A stretch of DNA of 64,000 bases from an uncultured Alphaproteobacteria bacterium. GTDB taxonomy: Bacteria > Pseudomonadota > Alphaproteobacteria > HIMB59 > GCA-002718135. Positions 5,548 to 57,453 of the stretch are shown here, piece after piece. The stretch lies in the NCBI GenBank assembly GCA_902618385.1, contig CACNAF010000004.1, forward strand, positions 762 to 64,761, given 5' to 3'. The notes below the pieces were generated by a model that was given only the letters and a program-made list of their open reading frames with translations, had not been told where the DNA came from and ran no database searches. The position numbers and the translations under genes were made by a program. Every line of letters starts with the position of its first letter. Within the stretch, counting starts at the first letter, position 1.

Positions 5548-5556
5548 TTGGCCTTT

Positions 5557-5691
5557 TTAAGCGCTTAATTGAGCTCTTCCTTTTGCACGTCTTCTATTAA
5601 TGATTTGACGACCTGCTTTAGTTGCCATTCTAGCCCTAAAACCGTGTCTTCTTTTTCTAATTACTCTACTAGGTTGGTAAGTGCGTTTCAT
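5557..5691 (-). CDS. rpmH: 50S ribosomal protein L34
   Basis: Too short for the ORF track. Reverse-strand ATG 5691 to TAA 5557 encodes [44 protein letters not shown] (44 aa), the canonical L34 sequence. Confidence 0.93.
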
Positions 5692-5745
5692 AATAAATCT
5701 CTGGGCCTAATACGAATTCATTATATATAAGTCAAATATTTACTT

Positions 5746-7190: not shown

Positions 7191-7231
7191 TGTTATTGTA
7201 ATATAAATTGTTTTGAAGAAATAGCTAGATA

Positions 7232-8427: not shown

Positions 8428-8449
8428 AATTTTAATTAACAAATAGTTT

Positions 8450-9995: not shown

Positions 9996-10014
9996 TTTAT
10001 TATTTACAACTTAA

Positions 10015-37187: not shown

Positions 37188-37979
37188 ATGAACTTAGAAT
37201 TACATAAATCAAAAAATTTATTAAAAATATTAAATACTGCTATAGATGCAGGTAAGGAAATTCAAAAAGTATATAAAAAATCTTTTAATGTAGAAATAAA
37301 AGATGATAATTCACCTATTACCGAAGCTGATATAAAATCAAATAATTTAATTTTAAATAGATTAAAATCTTTTAGCCCGAATGTTCCTATATTAAGCGAA
37401 GAAAGTCTAATAGAATGGAAAGAAAGAAAAACTTGGAATTCATATTGGTTAATAGATCCATTAGATGGAACTAAAGAATTTATAAAAAAAAATGGAGAAT
37501 TTACAGTTAACATTGCATTAATAAAAAATAATTCACCAATATTTGGTATTATATATGCGCCTGCTAAGTCTTTGCTTTATTATGCTTTAAAAAACAATGG
37601 CGCATATAAATTAATTACAGAGTCAAATATTGAAACAACTAAAGATTTTATAAAAATAAATTCAGTAAAAGACAAAAGTAATTTAACAAAGGTTATTGGT
37701 AGTCGATCACATTCTAATAAAGATTTTGATAATTGGATAAATGATAATTGTAATAATTTTGAGTTAATCCAAATTGGAAGTTCTCTCAAATTTTGTTACT
37801 TAGCTGAAAGTAAGGCAAATATCTATCCAAGACTAGGTCCAACTTCAGAATGGGATATTGCTGCGGGTCATATTATTCTTGAAGAGGCAGGAGGATCAAT
37901 TAAAGATTTTAATGAAAATATATTACTATACAACACTAAACAAAGTGTTATTAACCCTAATTTTATTGCTAAAATTTAA
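37188..37979 (+). CDS. cysQ: 3'(2'),5'-bisphosphate nucleotidase
   Basis: 263 aa. Inositol-monophosphatase-fold motifs ILSEES, WLIDPLDGTKEF and WDIAAGHIIL, with CysQ-like length and layout. Confidence 0.8.
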   Translation: MNLELHKSKNLLKILNTAIDAGKEIQKVYKKSFNVEIKDDNSPITEADIKSNNLILNRLKSFSPNVPILSEESLIEWKERKTWNSYWLIDPLDGTKEFIKKNGEFTVNIALIKNNSPIFGIIYAPAKSLLYYALKNNGAYKLITESNIETTKDFIKINSVKDKSNLTKVIGSRSHSNKDFDNWINDNCNNFELIQIGSSLKFCYLAESKANIYPRLGPTSEWDIAAGHIILEEAGGSIKDFNENILLYNTKQSVINPNFIAKI

Positions 37980-37990
37980 ATTATAAAGAT

Positions 37991-38404
37991 ATGAAAATAC
38001 TTATTTGTGGCCTTCCTGGTGCTGGTAAAACTTGGTTAGCTGAAAGGATTATTAAAGTAATTGATAATTGTGCTTGGTATAACGCAGATGTAGTAAGGAA
38101 GTCAGCAAACGATTGGGATTTTACGATGGAAGGTAGAATACGACAAGCCAATAGAATGAAAACATTTGCTGATTTTGAAAAACAAAATGGAAGATGGGTA
38201 ATTTGTGACTTTGTAGCACCAACTGAAAAAGCAAGAGAAGCTTTTGAGCCTGATTTTGTTATCTGGCTGGATACTATTAAAGAAGGTAGGTTTGAAGATA
38301 CAAATAAAATGTTTGAACAACCAAATAATACTGACATTAAAATAACCAAATTTTTATCAGATGAAGAAATAGAAAATCTAGCAAAGGAGATTAAAAATGT
38401 TTGA
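37991..38404 (+). CDS. Minimal P-loop kinase resembling the core of adenylyl-sulfate (APS) kinase
   Basis: 137 aa. Walker A GLPGAGKTWLA. The downstream pattern YNADVVRKS..DWDFT..GRIRQANRM......G.WVICDFVAPT..AR lines up by eye with the APS-kinase LDGDxVR...LGFS..DR.ENIRR....G.....FISP core. The C-terminal lid is missing. Confidence 0.5.
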   Translation: MKILICGLPGAGKTWLAERIIKVIDNCAWYNADVVRKSANDWDFTMEGRIRQANRMKTFADFEKQNGRWVICDFVAPTEKAREAFEPDFVIWLDTIKEGRFEDTNKMFEQPNNTDIKITKFLSDEEIENLAKEIKNV

Positions 38405-38792
38405 TTGGAAAAAACCAACAGTACAAATGTTAGGTAGATGGCAACCATGGCATGATGGACATACAGAATTATTTAAAAGGGCACTTCAGAAAACAGGTCA
38501 GGTATGTATTATGTATCGTGATGTGGGAGGTGTAGATGCAGGTGTAGAAGGTCAAGGTGACAATCCATTTCAATTTGAAGAAGTAAAAGCAAAAATTAAT
38601 GAAGGTTTAGCCCAACATGGTTTTACTGATGGAAAAGAATATGTAGTTGTTAAGGTTCCAAACATTATTGATATTTCTTATGGAAGAGGAGTTGGTTATT
38701 CATTTACAGAACATGATTTAGGAAAAGAAATACATGATATCTCGGCAACAAAAATTAGAAATGAAATGAGAGTTAAAGGGGAATTAAAATAA
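38397..38792 (+). CDS. Minimal HxGH-type nucleotidylyltransferase (cytidylyltransferase-like superfamily)
   Basis: 131 aa. GRWQPWHDGH (HxGH motif) and DISATKIRNEM (ISxTxIR motif). The ATG overlaps the kinase stop by 8 nt (ATGTTTGA). Confidence 0.6.
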   Translation: MFDWKKPTVQMLGRWQPWHDGHTELFKRALQKTGQVCIMYRDVGGVDAGVEGQGDNPFQFEEVKAKINEGLAQHGFTDGKEYVVVKVPNIIDISYGRGVGYSFTEHDLGKEIHDISATKIRNEMRVKGELK

Positions 38793-38793
38793 G

Positions 38794-40113
38794 CTAAATT
38801 TTTTCTCCTGCTGGTTTTCCATATCCAACATTTTTTTTCCCATATCGTCTTACTCTCACATTACATTGTTCTGCATGGCCAATAAAACCTTCTAAATGTG
38901 AAAGTCTAGATCCATATTCTCCGATGAGAGTTGCAGCTTCATCTGTCATAATCTTTTGATAAGTATGGGTTTTAATGAACTTACCAACCCACAAACCACC
39001 AGTATATCTTCCAGCTTTTTTAGTTGGAAGAGTATGGTTAGTGCCTATGACTTTATCACCATTAGCAACATTAGTTCTGGCGCCCAAAAATAGAGCTCCA
39101 TAAGATGTCATATTTTCTAAAAACCAATCATCTTTTTTTGTCATAACTTGTACGTGCTCTGAAGCTATTTCATTTGCTTTAGATAACATCTCCTCATAGG
39201 TATCACATAAAATTATTTCTCCATAATCTCTCCAGCTTGTACTTGCTGTTTCTTTAGTAGGTAAAATTTCTAAAATTCTATCAATTTCTTTAAATGTTTC
39301 TTCTGCAAGTTTTCTTGAGTTCGTTATCATCACAGCAGGAGAATTATATCCATGTTCAGCTTGTCCTAATAAGTCTGTTGCACATATTTCACCATCAACA
39401 GTTTCATCTGCAATTACCATTGTTTCAGTTGGACCAGCAAATAAATCGATACCAACTTTGCCATACAATTGTCTTTTCGCTTCAGCAACAAATGCATTGC
39501 CAGGTCCAACAAGCATATCTACAGGTCTAATAGTTTCTGTACCAATAGCCATAGCACCAACTCCTTGCATTCCTCCCAAAACATAAATTTCGTGAGCACC
39601 ACCCATTTTCATTGCAGTAACGACAGCTGGATTTGGCTTACCTTTAAAAGGTGGTGTAGTAGCAACAATTCTTGGAACCCCAGCAACAGAGGCAGTAACA
39701 ACTGACATATGAGCAGAAGCTACCATTGGGAATTTTCCGGCAGGTACATAGCAACCTACTGCTTGTACAGGTATATTCTTATGACCTAGAATAACACCTG
39801 GATGCGTTTCTACTTCTAATTCACTTAAAGTTTTAAGTTGTGCTTCTGCAAATGATCGCACTTGTTTTTGAGCAAATTTAATATCTTCTTTGTCTTCGTC
39901 AGAGACTTCACTCATTAATTGATTTATTTGATCTTCACTTAATCGAAAACTATCTGGTGAATAGTTATCAAATTTTTGTGATAATTCTCTAACATATTTA
40001 TCACCTTCTGATTCAATTTTACTTAATGTTTCCTCAACAATTTTTTTTACTTTATCATTATCTTCAATTCTTTGTTTTTCATCTAAACCTTTTTTTAAAT
40101 ATTCAATTGCCAT
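38794..40113 (-). CDS. Histidinol-dehydrogenase-family 4-electron alcohol dehydrogenase, non-his-operon paralogue (candidate sulfopropanediol 3-dehydrogenase HpsN)
   Basis: 439 aa. HisD catalytic and Zn motifs are retained ([27 protein letters not shown]). The context is catabolic, not histidine biosynthesis. The HpsN assignment is an inference. Confidence 0.8.
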
Positions 40114-40115
40114 AA

Positions 40116-41210
40116 TTATTTTTTATGAATTAATTTAAAGATATCAATGCCTATTTGATCTAATATGTGTGCTATGTCGATTGGTACCCAATTTTCTCTA
40201 ATTCGCCCTTCATGATGTAAATAAAAATCCATAACTCTTATTGTGACAGCTTTACCAGTACCTTGGTAGCCTAGCCACTCATTAGAACCATGTATACACT
40301 CAATACTTTGCCAGCCTGATGTCATTGAATAATTACCATCAGCTATTTCTATATAATGACCAATTTTCCAATAATCTCTCTCTTTAAATGTAAACCTAAA
40401 AGGTAATTGATGATGATCAACATATCCTTTTAAACCTCTTGCTGTACCAATACCGCAAGGTCCGTACCACATCATTTTAGGATGCCAGAATTCTTTTTGA
40501 GGATGATTTAGTAATTTATCTCTAACGTATTCATGCGTTGATCCAGGATCTGTTTCTGGTTTTATATTTAAACTTCTCTGCATTGTTAAAGCTTGATTCA
40601 TCGAATTGATGGACAACTTATCATCCATATTTTCAAATGTTGTACCATCACCGGTTATAGGACCAGGCCACATTCCTTCTACTCCTAATGATTTATTTAT
40701 TGGCCAAAATCCTGCCTGACGAATAAAATCTAGAGTATCAATCAAAATATGTGATTGAATGATTTTATTATCTTTAATTTGATGCGCTTCACATATTCTT
40801 AAATGTATAGTTTTGCCATGAGCAGGAACATTAAGCCATGGATTAACAAAAGTCCCAGTTAAATGAGCTATTGTTGAAACAAAAACTGAGTTTTGAAAAG
40901 AACCCCCAAGAATTAGGTTATCCCTTCTCTCAAGATCAGGAAATGCATTTAAAAGCGGTTTCCATAATTTTTCTGTTATTTCAGAAATGCCTTTTAAGTC
41001 ATTAAGTGGATGGAAGGTTCTTATTTCTGCATCATCATGATACGCATCACTAATATTTTTATTAATATTTTCTGAATTGGATTCAGCTATATTTTTTAAA
41101 AGAATTCTGATTTTTTTTTTATTTGCTATATTTATCTTTGGATTTAAATTAATTACTTCAGTGCTTCCTTCTTTTTTTATTCCAGTATTAAAATTTTCAA
41201 TTTCTGTCAT
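40116..41210 (-). CDS. Tandem (two-domain) SnoaL-like/ester-cyclase NTF2-fold protein, paralogue 1
   Basis: 364 aa. Domain 1: [15 protein letters not shown]...GTF...[24 protein letters not shown]. Domain 2: [16 protein letters not shown]...[20 protein letters not shown]. Both fit the ester-cyclase pattern FPD...G.H.G...TGk......f....gkI.E.W...D...ll.QiG. Confidence 0.6.
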
Positions 41211-41260
41211 AATTTACTTAGTTTCAGTTACTCACAGTTTAGGCTCAATATTTAATTGAT

Positions 41261-41299
41261 TTATTCAATATTTTGAATAATATTCATTAAAAATGCATA
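41261..41299. promoter_or_regulatory. Cluster of overlapping palindromes in the divergent promoter region (candidate operator)
   Basis: TTATTCAA-TATT-TTGAATAA (41261-41280), TGAATA-A-TATTCA (41274-41286), then TATTCATTAAAAATGCATA (41281-41299). The last motif recurs upstream of the LacI/SBP genes. Confidence 0.3.
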
Positions 41300-41318
41300 A
41301 AATATAATTTTTCTTAAT

Positions 41319-42290
41319 ATGTCAATAAATATAGAAAGTCGTCTTGCGAGATTTAATGATTTAATACCAAGTAAGGTTCCTTTTGTTGAGGGTAAATTAA
41401 AAGGACATCAAGATAGATTGAATTACTCATTAGTGGGTCCTGGCGTAAGTGAAGATTCTAAACAAAATGTAAAAATTGCTGAGGAGCATGGGTTTAATAT
41501 TGGGGCAGTAAGTGCTGCACCGATGAATGGTTCTGGGCTTCATAGTCATACAACAGCTGAGGTGTTTATTATCTTTTCTGGTTCATGGCGTTTTTATTGG
41601 GGACCAGATGGAAAAGAGGGTGAGGTTATTTTACATAAAGGAGATGTCGCTTCATTTCCTACTAATATGTTTAGAGGATTTCAAAATGTTAGTGATCAAC
41701 AAGCATTAATGTTTGTAGTTTTAGGTGAAAATGATCCTGGAGTAATTACATGGACTCCTTCATTGTTAAAAAAAGCAAAAGAAACTGGAATGGTTCTTTT
41801 AAATGATAACTCTCTTATTGATTTAGAAAAAAATCAAATACCTGATGGTAAAAAAGCAATAGAGCCAATCACAGATAATGAATTAACACAATTTGATCAT
41901 TACACTTCTGAAGAAATTGAAAAATTTGTAATTCGTTATGCAGATCAAAAAAATTATTTTCTAGATGACGAACATTATAATTCAAATTCTATTTTAAATT
42001 ATCTAGATGATTTCACTATTCATAATAAAGAATTTAAACCATATATTAGTCATAAAACTGGATTTGGACTTACTCTTCTTGAAGGTAATAATGCTCATAT
42101 ACATTCTTACACCTCATCAAAATCTGAAGTTTATTTATGTTTGGCGGGAGAATGGGAAATTACATGTAATGATAAAAAGGTGTTAATTGGCCCTAGAGAT
42201 GCCTTCTCCCCTCCAAAAAACTCTACAAGAAGCCTTAAAAATATAAGTAGCGATAAAGGTAGCATTTATATAGTGCGCCAAAAAAATTAA
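41319..42290 (+). CDS. Bicupin (two cupin barrels) protein of unknown function
   Basis: 323 aa. The N-terminal barrel has a full metal motif, GSGLHSHTTAEVFIIFSG (G..H.H...E......G). The C-terminal barrel has AHIHSYTSSKSEVYLCLAGEW. Confidence 0.65.
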   Translation: MSINIESRLARFNDLIPSKVPFVEGKLKGHQDRLNYSLVGPGVSEDSKQNVKIAEEHGFNIGAVSAAPMNGSGLHSHTTAEVFIIFSGSWRFYWGPDGKEGEVILHKGDVASFPTNMFRGFQNVSDQQALMFVVLGENDPGVITWTPSLLKKAKETGMVLLNDNSLIDLEKNQIPDGKKAIEPITDNELTQFDHYTSEEIEKFVIRYADQKNYFLDDEHYNSNSILNYLDDFTIHNKEFKPYISHKTGFGLTLLEGNNAHIHSYTSSKSEVYLCLAGEWEITCNDKKVLIGPRDAFSPPKNSTRSLKNISSDKGSIYIVRQKN

Positions 42291-42293
42291 AAG

Positions 42294-43265
42294 ATGAAGG
42301 GTTTTGATAAAAAATTTAGAGATCTACCCGATTATATACTAAAAATTACACATCAAATTTGGGAAGACAAGGATGTTGAGTCAATAAGAGAATATTATGC
42401 AAAAGGAATTCCAGTTAGGTCCCCTGCTGGAGTTGTGTATGGACCTGATGCAGTTGTGAAAGCAACTTATGCAACTTTAGAAGAATTTCCTGACCGTCAA
42501 CTTTTAGGTGAAGATGTCATATGGATAGGTAATGAACATGATGGGTATTTATCTTCGCACCGAATTTTAACTAGAGCAACCCACTTAAATGATGGTGTTT
42601 ATGGAAAAGCAACAGGAAAAAAACTTATTTATAGAGTAATTGCAGATTGTGCATGCAAGGATAATCAAGTGTATGATGAATGGCTTGTTAGAGATCAGGG
42701 CGCAATCGTAAGACAACTTAATTTAGATCCAAAAAAATATGCAAAACAAATAATTGATAATCAAGGGGGTGTTGAAAATTGCGCAGTTCCTTTTAACAAA
42801 AATACGCCTTTGGATTTAAAATATTCACAATTAAATTTACCGGAAAAAAATTCAGGTTATGAATATGCAGAAGTCCTAAAATCTATATTTAATAAAGATA
42901 TTAATATAGTTGATAAAAAATATGATAGAGCAATAAATCAAGAATTACCAGGCGGATTGAAAGCTTACGGAGTAGAAGAAGTAAAAACTTTTTGGACTTC
43001 TCTATTGTCATCATTTCCTGATGCAACATTTTCAATTGATCATGTTAGCTATTTAGAAGAACCAAATCAGTACAGAAAGGCAGCTATTAGATGGTCACTT
43101 AATGGTGTTCATTCGGGTTCGGGATATTTTGGAGTACCTAGTCAAGCAGCAGTTCATGTCATGGCTATATCACATGTTGAATTTGGACCACGAGGTATTA
43201 AAAATGAATGGATTTTGTTTGATGAAACTGAAATTTGGAAACAAATTTTGATGAAAACAGGATAG
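42294..43265 (+). CDS. Tandem SnoaL-like/ester-cyclase NTF2-fold protein, paralogue 2 (more divergent)
   Basis: 323 aa. EEFPDRQLLGEDVIWIG...ATHLNDGVYGKATGKKLIYRVIADCACKDNQVYDEWLVRD, then a second SFPDATFSIDHVSYL...GVHSG...VHVMAISHVEFGPRGIKNEWILFDE. Confidence 0.55.
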   Translation: MKGFDKKFRDLPDYILKITHQIWEDKDVESIREYYAKGIPVRSPAGVVYGPDAVVKATYATLEEFPDRQLLGEDVIWIGNEHDGYLSSHRILTRATHLNDGVYGKATGKKLIYRVIADCACKDNQVYDEWLVRDQGAIVRQLNLDPKKYAKQIIDNQGGVENCAVPFNKNTPLDLKYSQLNLPEKNSGYEYAEVLKSIFNKDINIVDKKYDRAINQELPGGLKAYGVEEVKTFWTSLLSSFPDATFSIDHVSYLEEPNQYRKAAIRWSLNGVHSGSGYFGVPSQAAVHVMAISHVEFGPRGIKNEWILFDETEIWKQILMKTG

Positions 43266-43272
43266 CTAAAGA

Positions 43273-44403
43273 TTGAACACGAAAATTTTAACAACACATG
43301 TAGGAAGTTTACCTCGTTCTAAAGCTTTATCAGAATTACTTTTTGCAAAAGATAAGGGAGATAGTTTTAGTGAAAATGAATTTGATGATGTTGTAAAACA
43401 AAATGTAAGTGACATTGTCAAAAAACAACTTGATACAGGTATTGATTTTGTCAGTGATGGTGAAATGAGTAAAATCAGTTATGCTACATATGTTAAAGAT
43501 AGAATTAATGGTTTTTCCGGTGAAAGTGAAAGAAGAGCGCCAGCTGACTTAGATGCATTTCCTGAATATAAAGATAAAATTGCTAAAAGTGGGGGAACAC
43601 CTACTTATACCCGACCCTGTTGTACTGGAGAACTCTCTATTAAAAATAATTATGATCTTTTAAAAGATATAAATAATCTATCTTCTGCATTAAATGCTAA
43701 TAATCATACTAAGGGCTTTATGAATGCTGCTTCACCAGGAGTCATAAATGTTTTTTTACCAAATAAATTTTACAAAAATGATGACGAGTACCTAAGTAAG
43801 CTTAGCGTGATTATGGCAGAAGAATATCAACAAATTACTTATAATAATTTATTCTTGCAAGTTGATTGTCCAGATTTAGCCCTAGCAAGGCATATGAATT
43901 TTAAAGAATTAGATGAAAAAAGTTTTTTGCTGCGAGCAGAAAAACAAATTGAAGCTCTTAATCTTTCACTGGCATCAGTTCCACAAGACAAAATTAGAAT
44001 GCATATCTGCTGGGGAAATTATGAAGGACCTCATACCTTTGATATTGGTTTGGAAAAAATTTTACCAATAGTACTTAAGGCAAAAAGTAAATATTTATTA
44101 ATTGAGTCTTCTAATCCAAGACATGCTCATGAATGGAAAGTTTTTGAAAAGATCAAATTGCCACAAGATAAAGTTATTGTGCCAGGTGTTATTGATTCTA
44201 CTTCAAATTTTGTTGAACACCCGGAAGTTGTTGCTGATCGGTTAAAACAATTTTCTACTTTTGTACCAAAGGAGCAAATTATGGCTGGTACAGATTGTGG
44301 TTTTAGTACTTTTGCTGGATTTGGAAAAGTTGATGAAAAAATTTGTTATGAGAAATTAATTTCGTTAGTTAAGGGCACTCAAATAGCATCTAAAACGATT
44401 TGA
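43273..44403 (+). CDS. Cobalamin-independent methionine synthase catalytic-domain-only (core-MetE / MetE-II family) protein, copy 1
   Basis: 376 aa, TTG start in the track. THVGSLPR N-terminus, and Zn-ligand pattern H-x-C (RMHICWGNYEG), IESSNPRH, DCG (AGTDCGFS). Confidence 0.7.
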   Translation: MNTKILTTHVGSLPRSKALSELLFAKDKGDSFSENEFDDVVKQNVSDIVKKQLDTGIDFVSDGEMSKISYATYVKDRINGFSGESERRAPADLDAFPEYKDKIAKSGGTPTYTRPCCTGELSIKNNYDLLKDINNLSSALNANNHTKGFMNAASPGVINVFLPNKFYKNDDEYLSKLSVIMAEEYQQITYNNLFLQVDCPDLALARHMNFKELDEKSFLLRAEKQIEALNLSLASVPQDKIRMHICWGNYEGPHTFDIGLEKILPIVLKAKSKYLLIESSNPRHAHEWKVFEKIKLPQDKVIVPGVIDSTSNFVEHPEVVADRLKQFSTFVPKEQIMAGTDCGFSTFAGFGKVDEKICYEKLISLVKGTQIASKTI

Positions 44404-44404
44404 T

Positions 44405-45097
44405 TTAAAATAAAAAATTAGTAATAATTTTATTAAAAGTTTTTGGCTTCTCTAGCATTACAAAATGAGAAGAATTTTTAATTTCTGTATAAACTGAATA
44501 TTTTATTTTCTTATTTAATTCATTGTTCATAATATTAGAGGATAGTTTATCGTTTTTGCCACGAATAATAAGAGTTTTTGATATAATCTTATCTAGTTTA
44601 TTTAATTGATTAGGTCTTTTTAGAGTCAAATTCGTTTGGTCTAAAAAAGTTTTATATCCTAATTGTTTAGCCATTGAATAAACAGTATTTTGGTATGATG
44701 TATTTTTCAAATCTTTATAAGAAAAATAGGAACTATAGTTTTTTTGATAAAATAATTTTGCGAAGTTATTTTTATTTAATGTTGTTAATGACTTTTCTAA
44801 AAGCAGCTTTCTTTTTTGTGAAATATTTCTTGCATTAGTTCCTATTAAAACTAATTTATCTAATATTTCTGGATAATCGATTGCTAATTTTATTGCAATA
44901 AATCCTCCCATTGAAAAACCAATAACAGAAATTTTTTTTTTATTTTTGTTTATGATTTTTTGTACAGCATCATCAACTGTAGCAATATTCTTTAGAGAAG
45001 GAATGGAAACATTATATTTTTTTTTTAGAATAGATATTTGTGCATCCCAAATGCTATTGGTACACATATATCCTGGAATCAAAATTATTTTAGACAA
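44405..45097 (-). CDS. Alpha/beta hydrolase
   Basis: 230 aa. Nucleophile elbow GFSMGG and C-terminal SSHFVMLEKP (catalytic His region). Downstream of, and co-oriented with, the LacI gene. Confidence 0.7.
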   Translation of the reverse strand: MSKIILIPGYMCTNSIWDAQISILKKKYNVSIPSLKNIATVDDAVQKIINKNKKKISVIGFSMGGFIAIKLAIDYPEILDKLVLIGTNARNISQKRKLLLEKSLTTLNKNNFAKLFYQKNYSSYFSYKDLKNTSYQNTVYSMAKQLGYKTFLDQTNLTLKRPNQLNKLDKIISKTLIIRGKNDKLSSNIMNNELNKKIKYSVYTEIKNSSHFVMLEKPKTFNKIITNFLF

Positions 45098-45100
45098 TTT

Positions 45101-46105
45101 CTATCTAGTTGTATTTCGATAAATAAATTTACCCTGAATTAAATGATTGATAGGCTCTAACTCTGGATCCTTAATGTTATCATCTATTATTTGGGTTACA
45201 AGTTTAGACATTTGTCTTACTGGTTGTCTAATTGTTGTTAAATTATATGAATGCCAATTTGCTGAAGATATATCATCATATCCAATTACCTCTATCTCTT
45301 CTGGTATATTAAGTTTTGTATTTTTTTTAATATAATCAACACAACCAAAAGCCATAATATCATCAGCACAAAACAATGCTGTAATATTATTTTTTAAAAG
45401 TTTATTTGCTGAATCTAAACCTCCTTCATATGTAAAATTTCCTCTTTCATGAAACAGTTTAATTTTGTCTAAATTATTTAAATAGTTTTTGAAACCTTTA
45501 CATCTTTCTTTACTCACAAATGATCCAATTGGTCCTTCAACCATTCCTATTTTAGTATGCCCATTATTAACGAAATGTTCTGCCGCCGCTTCTCCACCAT
45601 ACTTATGATCACAAGCTACAGAACTCAGTGTAGGTATTTTCCAATTTCTATTAAATGCAATAAGTTGAATTTGTTTGGCTAAACAGTTTTCTACAAACGC
45701 ATCAGTAGGCTTTGTTGCTGAAACAATTGCAACTAACTTTTCTTTTAAGTAGGGTTGAATTAAATTATCATCTAATTCCTCACCATCATCAGTAGTAATT
45801 AATAAAATTCTATACCCTGATACTCTTAGAGCTTCATGTAATTCGATAAGAACTTCAGGATAATATCTATTCGTAATATATGGTAATATAACACCAACTA
45901 AACCTCCCTCATCTAAACTCAGAGAATTAGTTGAAAAGGCCTGTGGTTTATATCCTAGTTTTTTTGCTGCCTCGATAACTCTCAATTTTGTTCTATTAGA
46001 AATGCTTGCTCCTTTTGTAAAGCATCGTGAAACAGCCGATTGTGACACACCTGCTAGCTTTGCCACACTACTTGATGTCGGTAATTTTGCTTTCTGAATG
46101 TTCAT
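45101..46105 (-). CDS. LacI-family transcriptional regulator
   Basis: 334 aa. N-terminal HTH (SSVAKLAGVSQSAVSRCFT......R..V..AA..LGYKP) plus a periplasmic-binding-protein-like sensor domain. Confidence 0.9.
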   Translation of the reverse strand: MNIQKAKLPTSSSVAKLAGVSQSAVSRCFTKGASISNRTKLRVIEAAKKLGYKPQAFSTNSLSLDEGGLVGVILPYITNRYYPEVLIELHEALRVSGYRILLITTDDGEELDDNLIQPYLKEKLVAIVSATKPTDAFVENCLAKQIQLIAFNRNWKIPTLSSVACDHKYGGEAAAEHFVNNGHTKIGMVEGPIGSFVSKERCKGFKNYLNNLDKIKLFHERGNFTYEGGLDSANKLLKNNITALFCADDIMAFGCVDYIKKNTKLNIPEEIEVIGYDDISSANWHSYNLTTIRQPVRQMSKLVTQIIDDNIKDPELEPINHLIQGKFIYRNTTR

Positions 46106-46121
46106 TTATCCACTATTAATT

Positions 46122-46159
46122 TATTCATTACATTGCATATTAATTCAAAGTAATGCAAT
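46122..46159. promoter_or_regulatory. Candidate operator in the lacI / ABC-SBP divergent region
   Basis: TATTCATTACATTGCATA (46122-46139) resembles 41281-41299. Inverted repeat ATTGCAT (46132-46138) / ATGCAAT (46153-46159). A TACGCGTA palindrome lies further downstream. Confidence 0.3.
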
Positions 46160-46232
46160 ATCATTTTAATAATTATAGTAATATACATACGCGTAAAAAA
46201 ATTGTTTTTTATACGTAATATATGGAGGAAAC

Positions 46233-47474
46233 ATGTTTTTAAAAAAATTAATTTTAGGTGGATTAACAGCACTATTCTTCAGCTCATCTTTGTTTGCGGC
46301 TGATTGTGGTCCTAATGGACAATCCATCCGAATTTTAGCAAGTGATTTTCCAGCAATTCACGCAATAGCAAATTCTGCTGAAAGCAATTGTGCAGGATCT
46401 GCATCTGAATTCACTCGCAATCATACTACTGAAGCGCGCCAAATAATGAACGCTGCTCAAACACCAGATCCAGCAGAGTATACATCAGTGATTGTAGCTA
46501 ACTCTACTCTTGTTCAGTTAATGAATGATGGACTAGTGAGACCATTAAATGACCTAGTTGAAAAATATGGTGGCAACTTAAAATCTAATCAACTTATAAC
46601 TATTGATGGTAAAATAATGGCTATAGCATTCATGGCTAATTCTCAGCACATGTATTATAGAACAGATATTTTAGATAAAGCTGGAGTTGATGGAATGCCA
46701 GCAACTTATGATGAAATAATTTCTGCTGCTGAAAAAATACGTTCAGCTGGTATCATGGAGCATCCACTTGTAATGAATCTTAAAGTAGGATGGAATGTTG
46801 GAGAAGTATTTAATACTATATACTTAGCACATGGTGGAGAATTCTTTAAGCAAGGTAGTGCAGAAGCATCTATTAATAACGCTAAAGGTATTGCGGCTCT
46901 AGAAACAATGAAAGCTCTAGTTGAGTATGCTCATCCTGATCATTTAACACAGGCATCTGATGATACGCAAGGATTATGGGAAGCTGGTCAAGCTGCAATT
47001 GGCTTTATGTGGGGTTCTCGTGGAGGAGTTATACTAGATAATGAAGGTTCTTCAGCTGAGGTGACTTCAAATACTGTTCTATCTGCAGCTCCAACTGTTA
47101 CTGGTGGTTCAATACCAGGAGCAACTTTATGGTGGGATGGAATAACTATAGCAACTAACGTGTCTGACAGTGAAGCAGAAGCAACGTTTGCAGCACTTGT
47201 AAGTGGTATGACTTCAGAAATGGTTGCTGCTAATAATGATGATGCAATTTGGTTAATTGATGGTTTTAAACCTGGTCCAGCTGCAGCAGGAGTGTCTGCA
47301 ACTGCTCAAGGCGGCGCTAAATCTTATCCAATGTTTGCTCAAATGGGATTATTGCACAATGCATTAGGTGCAGAGCTAGTTGATTTTTTAAAGGGAGCAG
47401 AAAGTGCTGAACAAGCACTTAGTGATGTAGAGGCTGTTTACGAAACAGCTGCTAAAGACGCAGGTTATCTGTAG
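46233..47474 (+). CDS. ABC transporter substrate-binding protein, family 1 (CUT1: sugar / glycerol-3-phosphate type)
   Basis: 413 aa. Signal peptide (…SSSLFAADC), SBP_bac_1-like composition, and a strong RBS (GGAGGAAAC-ATG). Confidence 0.85.
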   Translation: MFLKKLILGGLTALFFSSSLFAADCGPNGQSIRILASDFPAIHAIANSAESNCAGSASEFTRNHTTEARQIMNAAQTPDPAEYTSVIVANSTLVQLMNDGLVRPLNDLVEKYGGNLKSNQLITIDGKIMAIAFMANSQHMYYRTDILDKAGVDGMPATYDEIISAAEKIRSAGIMEHPLVMNLKVGWNVGEVFNTIYLAHGGEFFKQGSAEASINNAKGIAALETMKALVEYAHPDHLTQASDDTQGLWEAGQAAIGFMWGSRGGVILDNEGSSAEVTSNTVLSAAPTVTGGSIPGATLWWDGITIATNVSDSEAEATFAALVSGMTSEMVAANNDDAIWLIDGFKPGPAAAGVSATAQGGAKSYPMFAQMGLLHNALGAELVDFLKGAESAEQALSDVEAVYETAAKDAGYL

Positions 47475-47496
47475 TCAATAAATATAAATCAATAAA

Positions 47497-47524
47497 AAGG
47501 GGTTTTCAAATTTGAAAACCCCTT
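47497..47524 (+). terminator. Perfect 28-nt palindrome (14-bp stem) between the SBP and permease genes: intra-operon attenuator/terminator
   Basis: AAGGGGTTTTCAAA|TTTGAAAACCCCTT, 23 nt after the SBP stop. Its G/C-rich base stands out in an AT-rich spacer. Confidence 0.6.
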
Positions 47525-47554
47525 ATATCTTTCTATGTAATTTAAAATAGCATA

Positions 47555-48589
47555 ATGAAGCACAGCACATTCTTATTATTCATCTTTCCTTCATTAAGTG
47601 TAATGTTTTTATTTATTGCAATACCTATAGTTTCTGTTTTTATTCAATCCCTACATATAGAACATAAACAAGTAATAATTGTTTCAGAAAATTGTGATCC
47701 TTTTGGATGTGAGACGACAACATCTGTGGATACTGAAGCTTCTGCGAAGTTAAAAGAAAAAGCACCTCTTGGTAAATTTAATGGATTTAAAACGTATTCA
47801 AACAGAATGCATTTTGCATTTGATGAAATAGGAGAGGCTTGGAATAGCTCGGATAGTTTTATAGTTTTTGTAAAAAAAATATATAATTACCCCTTATATA
47901 GAGCGCTTAGCTTTACTCTTACTTACACCTTTGTAGTTACTCCGTTTGTTTTATTTCTTGGTTTTTTAGTTGCTCTTGGAGTCAATAATCTTCCTAAGTT
48001 GTTAAAAGGTCCAACAATTTTTGCATCTCTTCTTCCAATGATAGTTACACCTCTTGTGGGTTCATTGATATTGTTTTGGATGGTTGATGGCGATGGTGTT
48101 ATTGGAGCCACACTCCAAAAATTATTTAATGATAATTCTCTGAGCTTGAAAGCATCACCTGTGCTTACCTGGGTCATGTTGATGGTCTATGGTATATGGC
48201 ATTTGATGCCGTTTAGTTTTATTGTTTTTTATGCAGGTCTTCAAACAGTTCCTCATGAAACAATTGAGGCAGCAACTATAGATGGTGCATCTAAATTTCA
48301 AAGAACACGCCATGTCGTTATTCCTCATTTAATGCCACTTGCTATTTTTATAACTTTAATACTTTTAATGGATAATTTTAGAGTTTTTGAACCAATAATA
48401 AGTTTTAGAGCAGAAGCCCACGCTACCTCAATATCCTGGTTAATATGGAATCATTTGCGTGAAAGTGCTTACCCTCTATATAATGCAGCAGGCGCAACAT
48501 CTATGATTACTATTTTTTGTGTAGGAATTTTACTTTTGCCAGTGCTAATTCGAACATGGAGAGATTTTAATGAAAAAAATAAGGGTTAG
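47555..48589 (+). CDS. CUT1 ABC transporter permease (UgpA/MalF-like)
   Basis: 344 aa. Multi-TM protein with the EAA loop region ETIEAATIDGASKFQRTRHVVIPHL. Confidence 0.85.
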   Translation: MKHSTFLLFIFPSLSVMFLFIAIPIVSVFIQSLHIEHKQVIIVSENCDPFGCETTTSVDTEASAKLKEKAPLGKFNGFKTYSNRMHFAFDEIGEAWNSSDSFIVFVKKIYNYPLYRALSFTLTYTFVVTPFVLFLGFLVALGVNNLPKLLKGPTIFASLLPMIVTPLVGSLILFWMVDGDGVIGATLQKLFNDNSLSLKASPVLTWVMLMVYGIWHLMPFSFIVFYAGLQTVPHETIEAATIDGASKFQRTRHVVIPHLMPLAIFITLILLMDNFRVFEPIISFRAEAHATSISWLIWNHLRESAYPLYNAAGATSMITIFCVGILLLPVLIRTWRDFNEKNKG

Positions 48590-48595
48590 AAATTT

Positions 48596-49477
48596 ATGAA
48601 TACAAAAATTGAAAATAAATTAACCCCAGTTCGAATTATTGCTTTTGTATTCGTGGCTCTTTGGTTGATTGTTGCTATGTTTCCTTTTATCTGGACATTG
48701 TGGGGGTCTTTTAAAGTACAAGCTGATTTTTTTTCAAAAGCTGACTGGGCAAATGCAATATTTGGCTTTCATACTGAAAAACAAACAGGTAATTTTTTTA
48801 CTATTGATGGATATTATGGCTCTTGGATAGAAGAGGAATTTTGGCGCGCTGTTATTAACACAAGCATAGTAGTATTTTTTACAGTTTTAATTTCTCTTAC
48901 ATTTGGAACTTTAGGAGGCTATGCTCTTGCAAGGTCTACTTATCGATATGCCTTCTGGATTTTAATGGCAGGTCTTATTTTTCGTGCGATGCCTCATATG
49001 ACTTTAGTTTCAGGATATCTTCAACCTTTTTTTGCTTGGAATGTTTGGGGAATTTTACCTACAACAATAATTGTACTTGTTGCAATTAATCAGCCTTTTA
49101 CTCTGTGGATGTTACATTCATTTTTTTTAAATATACCAAAAGATTTAGATGAAAGCGCTATGTGCGATGGCTGTAATAGATTTCAAGCATTTAGATATGT
49201 GATCATTCCTATAATGTGGCCGGGTGTAATAACTACTGGATTATTTAGTTTCCTTCTTGCTTACAATGATTTTACAGTTACATCTATGTTGCTTTCAGAT
49301 GAAAATGAAACAATGATCCCAGCAATTGCTAGCTTTTTAGGTACCGTACAGGAAGAAGGTAAAGTAATGTATGCTGTAGCTGCCGTTGTTTCAGCAACTG
49401 CTCCATTATTCTTTCTTGTAATGTTTTTTCAAAGACAGATTGTTAGCGGATTAACAGCTGGAGCAGTTAAAGGTTAA
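48596..49477 (+). CDS. CUT1 ABC transporter permease (UgpE/MalG-like)
   Basis: 293 aa. EAA loop DLDESAMCDGCNRFQAFRYVIIPIM. Confidence 0.85.
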   Translation: MNTKIENKLTPVRIIAFVFVALWLIVAMFPFIWTLWGSFKVQADFFSKADWANAIFGFHTEKQTGNFFTIDGYYGSWIEEEFWRAVINTSIVVFFTVLISLTFGTLGGYALARSTYRYAFWILMAGLIFRAMPHMTLVSGYLQPFFAWNVWGILPTTIIVLVAINQPFTLWMLHSFFLNIPKDLDESAMCDGCNRFQAFRYVIIPIMWPGVITTGLFSFLLAYNDFTVTSMLLSDENETMIPAIASFLGTVQEEGKVMYAVAAVVSATAPLFFLVMFFQRQIVSGLTAGAVKG

Positions 49478-49482
49478 AAATT

Positions 49483-50556
49483 ATGAAACCTGAAGAGTTA
49501 AAAAAATATTTTGAAAATTATCAATTAGCTACTCAAAATTTTAACAAAAATTCAATAAAAAATTCTCTAGTTAAATATTTTTCTGAAAATTCGGTGTTTC
49601 ATTTCTGCTATCCTTTTGGAACATTTAATGGTTTAGATAAATTGTTAACTAATTGTATAAACCCCCTTTTAGATAGCATTCCTGATCTTGAAAGAAGAGA
49701 TATGATTGTTATGGCAGGCACAACACCTGAAGGTAAAGATTGGTTAGGCACTATGGGCAATTATATGGGAACTTTTTTAAAATCATTTTTAGATATTCCG
49801 CCAACAGGAAATTTAGTTCATATGCGTTATCATGAGTTTTTCCAAATAGAAAATAATCAAATTATAGAAATGCAATCAATTTGGGATCTACCTGAATTGA
49901 TGATGCAGGCAAATGCATGGCCAATGAGTCCTCAGCTAGGATCTTTTTTATGCACACCATCTCCTATGACAGGAGACGGCTTAAAGATAGAAGGTGATGG
50001 ATCAAAAAATTTTGACATTGTAATAAATATGCTTCGAGATATGGTTTTACACCCTAGTAATCCAAATCCACAAGTTATGAATTTAGATAAATATTGGCAC
50101 CCCAGATTTAATTGGTACGGACCAGTTGGAATTGGCACAGCAAGAGGTATCGAAGGATTTCGCCATTGGCATCAAATACCTTTTTTGCGTGCAATGCCTG
50201 ATAGAAAGGGAGGCTCATCAAATGATAGTTTAAAAAATGAGGGGTTGCAGGATATGCAAACACATTGGATATATGAAGGCGATTATGTTTGTGAAACTGG
50301 TTGGCCAAATATGCGATCTACAATTTCTCAAGATGGATGGATGGGTATTGCTCCATCAAATCAAATTATAGAAATGCGGAGTTTAGATTTTTGGAGATTA
50401 GAAAATGGTCTTATCAGAGAGAATTGGGTTTTAGTAGACCTTCTCGATGTTTACCAGCAAATAGGTGTTAATGTTTTTGATAGAATAAAAGAATTTAACA
50501 AAGCGAGAAACATTGGAGATATTAATATTTCTAAAGGACTTGGGTCAATAAAATAA
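49483..50556 (+). CDS. Tandem SnoaL-like/ester-cyclase NTF2-fold protein, paralogue 3
   Basis: 357 aa. Shares with paralogue 1 the strings (S/A)(I/F)PDLERRD, TGDG, WYGP.GIGTARG.(K/E)G(Y/F) and (R/L)IRENWV..D.....QIG. Lies directly after the permease genes, where an ATPase gene would be expected. Confidence 0.6.
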   Translation: MKPEELKKYFENYQLATQNFNKNSIKNSLVKYFSENSVFHFCYPFGTFNGLDKLLTNCINPLLDSIPDLERRDMIVMAGTTPEGKDWLGTMGNYMGTFLKSFLDIPPTGNLVHMRYHEFFQIENNQIIEMQSIWDLPELMMQANAWPMSPQLGSFLCTPSPMTGDGLKIEGDGSKNFDIVINMLRDMVLHPSNPNPQVMNLDKYWHPRFNWYGPVGIGTARGIEGFRHWHQIPFLRAMPDRKGGSSNDSLKNEGLQDMQTHWIYEGDYVCETGWPNMRSTISQDGWMGIAPSNQIIEMRSLDFWRLENGLIRENWVLVDLLDVYQQIGVNVFDRIKEFNKARNIGDINISKGLGSIK

Positions 50557-50598: not shown

Positions 50599-51258
50599 AT
50601 GGATTATAAAGCACTTTTATTTGGATCTATTGGAACACTTATTGAATCTTCTAATATTCAACGTAATTCATTTAATGAAGCTTTTAAAGAAGCTGGTCTA
50701 GATTGGTATTGGGATGAGCAAGATTATAAAATTTTGTTAAAAAAATCTGGTGGGACAAAAAGAGTAGAAGATTTTGCTGAAAAAAATAATGTTAATGTAA
50801 ATGCTTCACAAATTAGAAATAGAAAAACAGAAATTTTTAGTTCATTCATTATTAAGAATAAACAAAAATTAAGAAAAAGTGTTGATGAGATAATTAAGTA
50901 TACAAAAGATAACAATATTAAACTTGCTTTCTCAACTTCTACAACTTTAAATAATGTCGATGCAGTATTTGAAAGTCTTTCTAGTCAAATTGCTAAAGAA
51001 GATTTTGACTTTATTGGCAATAAATCGTTTGTTAAAAATGAAAAACCCCATCCAGAAATATACAAAGTAACTTTAGATAAACTAAATTTACACCCAGAAG
51101 ATTGTCTTGCAATAGAAGATACTGAAGAAAGTAGTAACTCTGCCGTAAACGCTGGAATTAAGTGTATAGGGTTTCCAGGAGATTATCACCTAGAAGATAA
51201 TTTTCAGATGTGCATCAAAAAAATGAATTTATTAGATCAATCTATCTTTTCATTGTAA
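50599..51258 (+). CDS. HAD-fold protein (beta-phosphoglucomutase-like subfamily) lacking the motif-I aspartates
   Basis: 219 aa. Motif I reads LLFGSIGTLIES instead of FDxDGTLxDS. Motifs II (FSTST), III (KPHPEIY) and IV (EDTEESSNSAVNAG) are recognisable. Confidence 0.65.
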   Translation: MDYKALLFGSIGTLIESSNIQRNSFNEAFKEAGLDWYWDEQDYKILLKKSGGTKRVEDFAEKNNVNVNASQIRNRKTEIFSSFIIKNKQKLRKSVDEIIKYTKDNNIKLAFSTSTTLNNVDAVFESLSSQIAKEDFDFIGNKSFVKNEKPHPEIYKVTLDKLNLHPEDCLAIEDTEESSNSAVNAGIKCIGFPGDYHLEDNFQMCIKKMNLLDQSIFSL

Positions 51259-51270
51259 ATAATCAGATCA

Positions 51271-52038
51271 ATGTTTCTAAAAAATTTTAATGTAAAAAAT
51301 AAGACTGCTCTTGTTACAGGATCAGGCAAAGGCATCGGTAAAGCATGTGCTATAGCATTAGCAGAAGCAGGTGCAAATGTAATTATTCTTAGTCGTACAG
51401 AAAAAGATCTTTTGATTGTTAAAAACAAAATTCAAAAACTCAAAAAGAAATGTAGTTATTATGTGTGCGATGTAACTAATTTAAAAGAAATAAAAAAAAT
51501 ATTTTCTGAAATCAATAAATTAGACATTTTAGTAAATAATGCTGGTACAAACAGACCTGAATATTTTACCAAAATTAAAAGAAAAGACATGAGTGAAGTT
51601 GTTGATCTTAATATTAAAGCATCATTCGATATTGCTCAATTAGCTACAAAAGTTATGCTTAAATCAAAAAATAGAAAAAAAATCGGTGGATCAATAATAA
51701 ATATCTCTTCTCAATTAGGTAAAGTTGGAGCTCCTCTTAGAAGTGTTTATAATATGACTAAATTTGGCGTTGAAGGTCTCACTAGAGGAATGGCTATTGA
51801 TTTGTCTAAATATAACATTAGAGTTAACTCTGTTTGTCCTACATTTGTGGAAACACCAATGGTCAAAAAATTTTTTAAAGATAAAAGTTTTAAAAAATCT
51901 GTAATTGAAAACATACCTTTGGGGAAAGTAGCAACAGAAAGTGATATTGCTAGTGCTGTAGTGTATCTTGCTTCAGATGCCGCATCAATGATGACTGGTT
52001 CATCACTAGTAATTGATGGAGGATGGACAGCTAAATAA
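51271..52038 (+). CDS. Short-chain dehydrogenase/reductase (classical SDR)
   Basis: 255 aa. TGSGKGIG cofactor motif, NNAG, catalytic S...YNMTK, and PTFVETP. Confidence 0.9.
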   Translation: MFLKNFNVKNKTALVTGSGKGIGKACAIALAEAGANVIILSRTEKDLLIVKNKIQKLKKKCSYYVCDVTNLKEIKKIFSEINKLDILVNNAGTNRPEYFTKIKRKDMSEVVDLNIKASFDIAQLATKVMLKSKNRKKIGGSIINISSQLGKVGAPLRSVYNMTKFGVEGLTRGMAIDLSKYNIRVNSVCPTFVETPMVKKFFKDKSFKKSVIENIPLGKVATESDIASAVVYLASDAASMMTGSSLVIDGGWTAK

Positions 52039-57446: not shown

Positions 57447-57453
57447 ATCTTTA

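Follow-up and report, generated by a model that had tools for sequence, protein, structure and literature searches.

Tandem SnoaL-like proteins in a conserved gene island of SAR11 and other marine bacteria, a probable catabolic regulon for an imported metabolite

The stretch of DNA analysed here (the window: 64,000 nucleotides, positions 762 to 64,761 of contig CACNAF010000004.1, assembly GCA_902618385.1, from an uncultured alphaproteobacterium; G+C content ~30%) carries a SAR11 gene island in which three genes encode proteins made of two fused SnoaL-like domains of the NTF2 fold. We refer to these proteins as P1 (positions 40116-41210, minus strand, 364 amino acid residues), P2 (42294-43265, plus strand, 323 residues) and P3 (49483-50556, plus strand, 357 residues); positions and lengths are exactly those given in an earlier note on this DNA. 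At the P3 locus the window is 100% identical to a contig of the SAR11-type single-cell genome AG-920-K10, and its relatives bear the label Pelagibacteraceae. Gene spacing divides the island into four transcription units, within which we describe gaps of 2-12 nucleotides (nt) as tight. Unit 1 (minus strand) holds a HisD-like dehydrogenase gene and the gene for P1, with a 2-nt gap; unit 2 (plus strand) holds genes for a bicupin, P2 and a MetE-like enzyme, with gaps of 3 and 7 nt; unit 3 (minus strand) holds genes for a LacI-family repressor and an alpha/beta-fold hydrolase, 3 nt apart; and unit 4 (plus strand) holds genes for a binding protein, two permeases of an ATP-binding cassette (ABC) system, P3, a HAD hydrolase and a short-chain dehydrogenase/reductase (SDR). 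The earlier description of the tandem genes as one per operon holds for three of the four units.

All three proteins score above the gathering score of the Pfam SnoaL family PF07366 (28.4 bits), with whole-protein scores of 66.4 bits for P1, 61.1 bits for P2 and 73.5 bits for P3, which places them in the SnoaL-like/NTF2 superfamily. Each is matched in two stretches, in agreement with the proposal of two NTF2-type domains per protein, and SnoaL_2 (PF12680) is matched by all three as well. A full-length alignment of P1 with P3 gives 28% identity (E = 2e-54). The strings PDLERRD, TGDG, WYGPxGIGTARG and IRENWV..D..QIG are found in both, as the earlier note had seen, and in an alignment of 111 family sequences their columns are invariant or nearly so. 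They therefore point to functional constraint, and a recent duplication is not their explanation. P2, which had been counted as a third paralogue, is remote from both proteins (pairwise E = 0.004). A profile-profile alignment of its family with that of P1 and P3 is collinear through both halves (271 columns, 84.5% probability, E = 7e-6), and this combination of a weak pairwise match with a collinear profile match points to two tandem families and not one. We regard P1 and P3 as ancient paralogues, belonging to subgroups 2 and 0, respectively, of a family that we call SNO13, and P2 as a member of a separate ancient tandem family, SNO2. SNO2 is itself a sizeable family, with 644 clusters at 50% identity when matches are limited to E <= 1e-10, and most of these matches are full-length. 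P3, the most conserved member of SNO13, has at least 4922 homologues, with identity of ~60% among SAR11, Erythrobacter, Henriciella, Yoonia and the gammaproteobacterium Agarilytica; their database name is "ester cyclase" only.

An AlphaFold2 model of P3 built on the 111-sequence alignment (pLDDT 86.5, pTM 0.89) superseded an earlier model from 13 sequences, which was reliable in the first domain only and poor in the second. The model consists of two alpha+beta cones (approximately residues 1-142 and 174-326), which are joined by a linker of ~30 residues and followed by a C-terminal helix, again in keeping with two NTF2-type domains. The cone fold was modelled for P3, and P1 is covered by its full-length homology to P3. 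In a Foldseek search against PDB, each P3 cone was similar to IdmH, AclR, ChaU, SnoaL2 and several structural-genomics entries, with target-normalised TM-scores of 0.77-0.82 at 14-17% sequence identity; a closely related solved tandem structure was not found in this search. Single-domain SnoaL-like enzymes (SnoaL, AknH, IdmH, ChaU and SnoaL2/AclR) share with the present proteins the cone fold and the C-terminal strand motif I.E.W...D. However, they are homodimers of 130-160 residues that act on aromatic polyketides and are encoded in Streptomyces biosynthetic clusters, whereas the present proteins are fused double domains of 320-365 residues, 11-20% identical to the single-domain enzymes, with a conserved WHP..WYGPxGIGTxRG..HQxPF segment opening the second domain, and they are encoded in transporter-linked operons of marine bacteria that we read as catabolic.

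The top Foldseek match of the full P3 model, and the only two-cone match among the 50 PDB matches listed for it, is the MonBI-MonBII polyether epoxide hydrolase complex (PDB 9kw6; E = 6e-9, root-mean-square deviation 16.5 A, 11% identity). A deviation of this size indicates a different arrangement of the domains, and the likeness lies in both chains holding two NTF2 cones. Tandem NTF2 polyether epoxide hydrolases/cyclases such as Lsd19 and MonBI-MonBII are a precedent, at the level of concept, for paired NTF2 domains that work one after the other on one substrate, but they belong to the limonene-epoxide-hydrolase branch and depend on a polyether polyketide synthase (PKS) and an epoxidase, neither of which was found at the present loci. 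It is scarcely credible that the present tandem proteins are themselves polyketide- or polyether-type cyclases of a secondary-metabolite pathway. Their Pfam and NCBI names, the top Foldseek match and their resemblance to Lsd19 and MonBI-MonBII lean in that direction, but no PKS, epoxidase or tailoring genes occur in the window or in any annotated related locus, the genes belong to a SAR11 genome, which is streamlined, and have importer and LacI repressor genes around them, and the match to the MonB complex is as distant as just described. For the same reason the name "ester cyclase", which the earlier note had adopted, should not be taken as a function, as polyketide cyclisation is at odds with a context of importer, LacI and dehydrogenase genes. 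Ester cyclases proper (SnoaL, AknH and DnrD) convert an anthracyclinone methyl ester and are part of a type II PKS cluster.

To describe this context in other genomes, we used a one-genome-per-species scan, which returned more than 600 loci; 80 of these were kept with 10-kb flanks, and neighbours were counted at the 41 loci with complete flanks of 10 kb on both sides, by tblastn with the window proteins and with extra families from relatives. The carriers are Rhodobacterales, Hyphomonadaceae/Maricaulaceae, Rhizobiaceae, Devosiaceae, Sphingomonadaceae, Arenicella, Agarilytica, Halieaceae, Granulosicoccus, Woeseiaceae and a metagenome-assembled genome (MAG) of Cryomorphaceae, and annotated or Pfam-annotated examples (Agarilytica, Henriciella, Octadecabacter arcticus pOA238_160 and Marinovum algicola pMaD9) agree with the scan. 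Of the 41 loci, 4 have one tandem SnoaL gene, 4 have two, 28 have three, 4 have four and 1 has five, so that 33 have at least three. Within 10 kb, a LacI gene and a SNO2 gene of the P2 type are each present at 36 of the 41 loci, followed by genes for the MetE-like enzyme (34), the SDR (33), the bicupin (32), the HisD-like dehydrogenase (29, or 27 of the 32 loci outside SAR11), the alpha/beta hydrolase (27), CUT1-type ABC components (26), a MalK-like ATPase (20, or 19 of the 32 non-SAR11 clusters), an RraA-type protein (13), an Amidohydro_2 protein (12) and an HpcH/HpaI aldolase (10). The earlier note had held that its proposal would suffer if the tandem proteins were widespread without these neighbours; only 3 of the 41 homologues in full context (loci L045, L046 and L060) lack HisD-like, MetE-like, cupin and SNO2 genes within 10 kb.

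The P1/P3 superfamily falls into four orthologous groups: the P3 type, with one member per locus; a group that we call sub1 (37 loci), the profile of which is 31% identical to the P1/P3 profile over 327 columns; the P1 type, or subgroup 2 (10 of 82 loci, mostly SAR11); and sub3 (5 loci). A typical cluster encodes one P3-type protein, one protein of the sub1, P1 or sub3 type and one SNO2-type protein. Conservation of at least three distinct tandem SnoaL orthologues, each across phyla, argues for different serial reactions and not for redundant or mirror-image duplicates. Serial and stereo-complementary steps had both been suggested for the three proteins; the former is favoured and the latter disfavoured by the finding that distinct orthologous groups with ~30% identity or less are kept separately in distant taxa.

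Copy number is fluid even within SAR11, as another SAR11 lineage (L092/L093, single-amplified genomes, positions 3034-9998) carries five tandem genes and one single-domain SnoaL gene, without the alpha/beta hydrolase gene, at the same chromosomal position. This bears on the idea that the tandem proteins are non-catalytic, serving as ligand-binding or chaperoning subunits or as parts of one hetero-oligomer with a single reaction. The NTF2 fold often serves binding, and several copies co-occur in a cluster. Nevertheless, both halves are dense in invariant charged and aromatic residues (D68, E70, R72, H113, R115, E118, D135, H206, R221, H230, D302, R312 and E313), identity between alphaproteobacterial and gammaproteobacterial proteins reaches 60%, and variation from two to five copies among lineages suits separate enzymes better than a fixed complex. 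We consider this reading very improbable.

The genes next to P3 deserve a closer look. P3-type genes have the HisD-like gene as immediate neighbour on one side (31 loci) and the SDR gene on the other (36 of 55 loci, same strand), and in Octadecabacter the stop codon of the P3-type gene and the start codon of the SDR gene overlap. The SDR of the window (51271-52038, plus strand; adh_short_C2, 203 bits) has generic PDB matches. It is separated from P3 by the gene for a HAD-IA hydrolase of the beta-phosphoglucomutase family (50599-51258, plus strand; HAD_2, 72.6 bits), a cluster member found mainly in SAR11 and present at 10 of the 41 loci. The close pairing of P3-type and SDR genes, together with the presence of AclR and SnoaL2 among the closest structural matches of the P3 model, raises the question of whether the two form a cofactor-free hydroxylase of the SnoaL2/SnoaW (AclR/AclQ) type, in which reduction of an enone- or quinone-like intermediate by the SDR would be followed by its reaction with O2 in the NTF2 cone; at least one SnoaL step would then be an oxygenation instead of a hydrolysis or isomerisation. 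We find this improbable. P3 resembles AclR and SnoaL2 no more closely than it resembles cyclases and pericyclases with this fold (14-17% identity), the HAD gene intervenes in the window, and consecutive steps of one pathway explain the adjacency equally well.

The transporter encoded upstream of P3 appears to be an importer of the CUT1 class (sugar, polyol or glyceryl-compound type). It comprises a periplasmic solute-binding protein (46233-47474, plus strand; SBP_bac_1) and two permeases (47555-48589 and 48596-49477, both plus strand), which we recognized as MalF/MalG-like by reading the translations and not by domain search; the orthologues in relatives are annotated as BPD_transp_1/sugar ABC permeases, and the window permeases are 42-96% identical to those of related clusters. 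The binding protein and both permeases are present, but a MalK-type ATPase gene is absent; likewise, no RraA, HpcH or Amidohydro_2 gene is found anywhere in the 64-kb window. P3 follows the permease genes, a slot that the earlier note had marked as the usual place of the ABC ATPase gene. We attach no functional meaning to this position. Clusters of Rhodobacterales and Rhizobiaceae likewise have a tandem SnoaL gene behind the permease genes, with the MalK-like ATPase gene elsewhere in the cluster, which indicates that the SAR11 cluster has lost the ATPase gene and that the SnoaL gene has not replaced it. We assume that the SAR11 importer would use a shared ATPase encoded elsewhere. In gammaproteobacterial clusters the transporter is an SSF symporter. 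Weak PDB relatives of the binding protein are NagB2, MalE3 and the sulfoquinovosyl-glycerol binder SmoF, and there is a distant likeness to UgpB. Orthology with SAR11_0769, the solved glucose/galactose protein of the SAR11 binding-protein survey, is disfavoured, as no chain in the PDB sequence search matched better than E = 8.8e-14. A perfect palindrome of 14+14 nt (AAGGGGTTTTCAAATTTGAAAACCCCTT, 47497-47524) lies within the 80 nt that separate the binding-protein gene from the first permease gene and may raise the level of binding-protein mRNA relative to that of permease mRNA.

The LacI-family repressor gene (45101-46105, minus strand; LacI helix-turn-helix and Peripla_BP domains) is transcribed divergently from the binding-protein gene. 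The promoter region between them carries two adjacent operator-like palindromes, TATTCATTACATTGCATA and AATTCAAAGTAATGCAAT (46122-46159), and a second such pair, TATTCAATATTTTGAATA and TATTCATTAAAAATGCATA (41262-41299), lies in the divergent promoter region between P1 and the bicupin gene. In both places the palindromes are paired and have the form TATTCA-N6/7-TG[AC]ATA. The element at 41262-41279 is the sole perfect match to TATTCA-N6-TGAATA in the 64-kb window, and that at 46122-46139, with one mismatch, is one of four matches in the window with no more than one mismatch. The palindromes are kept in the orthologous intergenic regions of SAR11 lineages in which the proteins are only 65-90% identical. 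We infer that they are putative operators of the LacI-family repressor. With the same neighbours found across orders and phyla and a common promoter palindrome, participation of the three tandem proteins in one pathway, as the earlier note had proposed, is very probable.

The HisD-like dehydrogenase (38794-40113, minus strand) is a member of the HisD/HpsN family of Zn-dependent four-electron alcohol dehydrogenases (PF00815, 446 bits), and its gene is the one that is annotated as SAR11 hpsN or hisD. The protein is 89% identical to Pelagibacteraceae proteins, and its close SAR11 homologues are extremely numerous in metagenomes, where JGI names them sulfopropanediol 3-dehydrogenase and NCBI histidinol dehydrogenase. 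It is closer to HpsN than to HisD (402 bits against solved HpsN, 8v35; 261 bits against HisD, 4g07) and shares with HpsN the fold and the catalytic Glu-His and Asp-Lys residues; the catalytic residues are intact, and the QAEHG and GDK..NH.LPT motifs are conserved. The motif that discriminates the two known enzymes is G-R-Y-A/S-H in HpsN, where the final His binds the sulfonate, and G-S-A-P-L in HisD (PMC11382572). Both solved HpsN enzymes read G-R-Y-[AS]-H, whereas the window protein reads A-G-K-F-P-M, and G-K-[FY]-P-[ML] is found in all 45 of the 45 cluster orthologues, none of which thus carries the HpsN sulfonate motif. By this motif, we assign the HisD-like cluster enzymes to a third specificity class. 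Absence of the sulfonate-recognition His from all of these orthologues makes 2,3-dihydroxypropane-1-sulfonate (DHPS) unlikely as the native substrate.

Gene context and published kinetics can be set beside this motif. The HisD-like gene differs from hpsN in lacking in its surroundings HpsP, the HpsKLM tripartite ATP-independent periplasmic (TRAP) transporter and any sulfo-lyase. Clustering with hpsO, hpsP and hpsKLM is not seen in the window, where an SDR gene is present but a medium-chain dehydrogenase/reductase (MDR) gene and a TRAP system are absent; an MDR dehydrogenase gene lies near the HisD-like gene at one Halieaceae locus only. The SAR11 "HpsN" PU1002_02401 oxidises R-DHPS with a Km of ~106 mM and a kcat/Km of 1.7e-3 per mM per s, against a kcat/Km of 1.9e-4 for E. 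coli HisD, the Km of which is likewise ~100 mM, and of 0.055 for the genuine HpsN of R. pomeroyi (PMC11131964). It is thus ~9x as efficient as E. coli HisD and ~30-fold below R. pomeroyi HpsN, and it is poor with histidinol too (PMC11131964). These values fit an enzyme whose real substrate was outside the assay, its orthology to the HisD-like gene of the window being an assumption.

A variant pathway for DHPS or another C3-sulfonate has to be weighed against these data. Here the HisD-like protein would be a true HpsN that makes sulfolactate, and the SnoaL and cupin proteins would carry out downstream steps or desulfonation. Besides the closeness to solved HpsN, the JGI name and the activity of the SAR11 homologue on R-DHPS in vitro (PMC11131964), the location of the SAR11 island amid organosulfur genes (xsc, a pta-like gene, and genes for an omega-aminotransferase, alanine dehydrogenase, cysQ and a PehA-like sulfatase) speaks for it, as does the Halieaceae locus, where the MDR dehydrogenase gene and an aminotransferase gene by the HisD-like and SDR genes resemble HpsNOP. 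Yet all 45 orthologues have Met or Leu in place of His126 of HpsN, the final residue of the motif (PMC11382572); the published SAR11 enzyme, if orthologous, is weak on R-DHPS; the transporter is of the sugar-type CUT1 or SSF class and not HpsKLM; a sulfo-lyase or sulfite exporter is not conserved in the cluster; and xsc was found at 0 of 91 other loci searched, so that its linkage to the cluster is specific to SAR11. On balance we regard a sulfonate pathway as decidedly unlikely, and the "SAR11 hpsN" marker probably belongs to the pathway of the present island instead of DHPS use.

Four of the organosulfur genes form a sulfoacetaldehyde/taurine module split by the SnoaL island. Its parts lie at 32793-34562 (plus strand), 52927-53826 (minus), 53945-55285 (plus) and 55285-56400 (plus) and encode Xsc, a Pta/Ptb-like phosphotransacylase, an AptA-like omega-aminotransferase and alanine dehydrogenase; xsc, the first of these segments, scores 1027 bits against the sulfoacetaldehyde acetyltransferase model NF005713. 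Between xsc and a gene of the Na/Ca-exchanger family sits a gene for a glucose-methanol-choline (GMC) oxidoreductase of the choline-dehydrogenase type (34563-36167, minus strand), with 574 bits against a subfamily cut-off of 605. Adjoining cysQ (37188-37979) is a gene for a P-loop protein of 137 residues (37991-38404, plus strand) with weak similarity to adenylylsulfate (APS) kinase (PF01583, E = 4e-7), and it overlaps by 8 nt a gene for a 131-residue protein (38397-38792, plus strand) that has an HxGH motif and is weakly cytidylyltransferase-like. In other SAR11 genomes the slot of this pair is occupied by CysNC and CysD, and the pair could be a minimal sulfate-activation pair. An antisense open reading frame at 37981-38448 (minus strand) looks spurious.

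The remaining enzymes of the island offer clues to its substrate. The MetE-like protein (43273-44403, plus strand, 376 residues; Meth_synt_2, PF01717, 54 bits) is a probable Zn-dependent thiol methyltransferase. Across 43 family members H244, C246 and C342 are invariant and the THVGSLPR and D62-G63-E64 motifs are kept. The H-x-C pair, the D-C-G cysteine, THVGSLPR and DGE are, we take it, the zinc and homocysteine sites of MetE, and methyl transfer to homocysteine is the likeliest role by analogy; PDB matches are structural-genomics entries only. A second, more canonical short MetE-like gene (56397-57497, minus strand; Meth_synt_2, 139 bits) lies beyond the island and overlaps the end of a gene for a PehA-like phosphoric/sulfuric ester hydrolase (57454-58989, minus strand). 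The bicupin (41319-42290, plus strand, 323 residues, two Cupin_2 stretches) conserves H75, H77 and E81 in its N-terminal barrel, and its C-terminal barrel is degenerate, as judged from 29 sequences. With ligands in the first barrel only, one metal site is expected; no PDB relative was found at E < 0.01.

The alpha/beta-fold hydrolase (44405-45097, minus strand, 230 residues; Abhydrolase_1, GFSMGG nucleophile elbow) is a divergent member, only 21% identical to the hydrolase of other clusters, and its nearest NCBIfam models (PcaD, MenH and BioH) all match far below their cut-offs. The same caution applies to the larger clusters, where the hydrolase is nearest to PcaD, the HpcH/HpaI aldolase to GarL/HpaI and the Amidohydro_2 protein to L-fucono-1,5-lactonase, all far below thresholds. 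In possessing Amidohydro_2 and an HpcH/HpaI aldolase or RraA/LigK-type protein, the larger clusters resemble the lower pathways of non-phosphorylative sugar-acid degradation and aromatic meta-cleavage, and these lactonase-like and aldolase genes suggest pyruvate and an aldehyde or acid as end products. In contrast to those pathways, the present clusters have no dehydratase of the enolase superfamily or the IlvD type, and the aldolase and Amidohydro_2 are absent from the SAR11 window.

Reduced variants of the cluster were also seen. A plasmid of Vibrio pelagius (L087) has four tandem NTF2 genes and an ABC system, without dehydrogenases; the haloarchaeon Halobellus limi has four tandem and one single NTF2 genes with genes for a MetE-like protein, an aldehyde dehydrogenase, an oxidoreductase, a metallo-beta-lactamase-type hydrolase and an ABC system; and Phaeobacter piscinae has LacI, an ABC system and three NTF2 genes, with neither a MetE-like gene nor sarcosine oxidase and purU. 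On the Vibrio plasmid (16731-22897 and 27458-29488), genes for a heterotetrameric sarcosine oxidase and purU directly follow two tandem NTF2 genes, and a pair encoding DUF1852 and methionine synthase lies 5 kb beyond them. This lead recurred only once, at a distance (Amylibacter), and we take it as no more than a weak pointer to the chemistry of N-methyl or N-substituted-glycine groups. A gene of the SBP56 (methanethiol-oxidase) type, with a conserved hypothetical partner of ~214-218 residues, lies by the cluster in Marinovum algicola pMaD9 (L086, 20794-29003), where the pair is followed by dmdA and other dimethylsulfoniopropionate (DMSP) genes, and in Phaeobacter piscinae (L091, 11705-13768). 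We gave up the SBP56 gene as an argument for a methylthio substrate, as it was found at 0 of the 80 genome loci.

Taken together, importer, LacI, two dehydrogenases, hydrolases and a pyruvate aldolase make catabolism far likelier than polyketide biosynthesis. We consider it probable that the island is one LacI-controlled regulon for the catabolism of an imported, methylated, polyol-like metabolite, in which the SnoaL proteins would act as successive cofactor-free acid/base enzymes; the catalytic roles, the catabolic direction and repression by LacI are what we infer from gene content and conservation. A polyhydroxylated, methyl-bearing algal compound would be taken up by the CUT1 importer, or by the SSF symporter in gammaproteobacteria. 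The HpsN-like dehydrogenase would oxidise a -CH(OH)-CH2OH end to the carboxylate, the SDR would oxidise a secondary alcohol, and the MetE-like Zn enzyme would take off a methyl group, with homocysteine as the probable acceptor. Opening or trimming of the skeleton would fall to the bicupin with its single metal site and to the alpha/beta hydrolase, and in larger genomes an HpcH/HpaI or RraA-type aldolase would release pyruvate. NTF2-fold enzymes are known for aldol and retro-aldol reactions, dehydration (scytalone dehydratase), enolisation (ketosteroid isomerase) and addition of water (limonene epoxide hydrolase). By analogy with this chemistry, an acid/base role is most likely for the tandem SnoaL proteins, each of which might catalyse one different cofactor-independent step (hydrolysis, dehydration, tautomerisation or retro-aldol cleavage) in series with the others and not redundantly.

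Several observations weigh against this proposal. NTF2 proteins can be non-catalytic; the promoter palindrome is not enriched in the AT-rich window once two mismatches are allowed; and a full-text literature search returned nothing on the tandem proteins or the cluster. The SAR11 version has no aldolase, Amidohydro_2 or ATPase gene, so the pathway is either shorter there or completed by genes elsewhere. Cluster composition also varies, with SNO2 and the cupin absent from Gammaproteobacteria and the dehydrogenases absent from Vibrio, and lineages may therefore process related but non-identical substrates.

The gene set suggests a polyhydroxylated substrate that has a -C(OH)-CH2OH group and a transferable methyl and that yields pyruvate. 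Our guesses at its identity are the C7-cyclitol sunscreens (mycosporine-like amino acids and gadusol) or a glyceryl-onium lipid head group; the cluster's families receive no mention in the paper on the homarine (hom) operon. Mycosporine-like amino acids and gadusol have a ring hydroxymethyl, one O-methyl, hydrolysable amino-acid substituents and, in their reductone core, a fitting target for a cupin dioxygenase. On this chemical fit, and on the marine, sunlit and alga-associated distribution of the cluster, we tentatively raise the possibility, unlikely as it is, that the cluster is a bacterial degradation pathway for these compounds. The SnoaL enzymes would then split off the amino-acid substituents (imine and enaminone) by hydrolysis and act on the ring by dehydration or tautomerisation, oxidation of the ring hydroxymethyl would fall to the HpsN-like enzyme, the MetE-like enzyme would salvage the methyl as methionine, the bicupin would cleave the resulting reductone and the aldolases would release pyruvate. 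Glyceryl-onium head groups of betaine lipids are a second candidate that would fit by analogy, as the HpsN lineage acts on 2,3-dihydroxypropyl-X compounds and the binding protein is distantly like SmoF and UgpB; onium methyl donors for zinc thiol methyltransferases have precedent.

The fold and the type of system described here are known; the fused family, its presence in several copies per cluster and the pathway as a whole are uncharacterised. Despite the extreme streamlining of SAR11 genomes, the present lineage retains an island of 13 genes with three double-domain enzymes, and some SAR11 lineages have five such enzymes. Protein identity of ~60% in Roseobacters, Hyphomonadaceae, Rhizobiaceae, several Gammaproteobacteria and a Cryomorphaceae MAG points to a common, unrecognised substrate in the marine dissolved organic pool. 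Considering the missing sulfonate-binding His, the gene context and the weak published kinetics, survey counts of SAR11 hpsN may misreport DHPS use. If the substrate were indeed a sunscreen, the "SAR11 hpsN" signal in metatranscriptomes would reflect sunscreen turnover and not DHPS turnover, and SAR11, which is auxotrophic for glycine and serine, would gain glycine, serine and a methyl group. For the tandem SnoaL families, which have neither a solved structure nor an assigned reaction, knowing the substrate would give access to a group of new cofactor-free enzymes.

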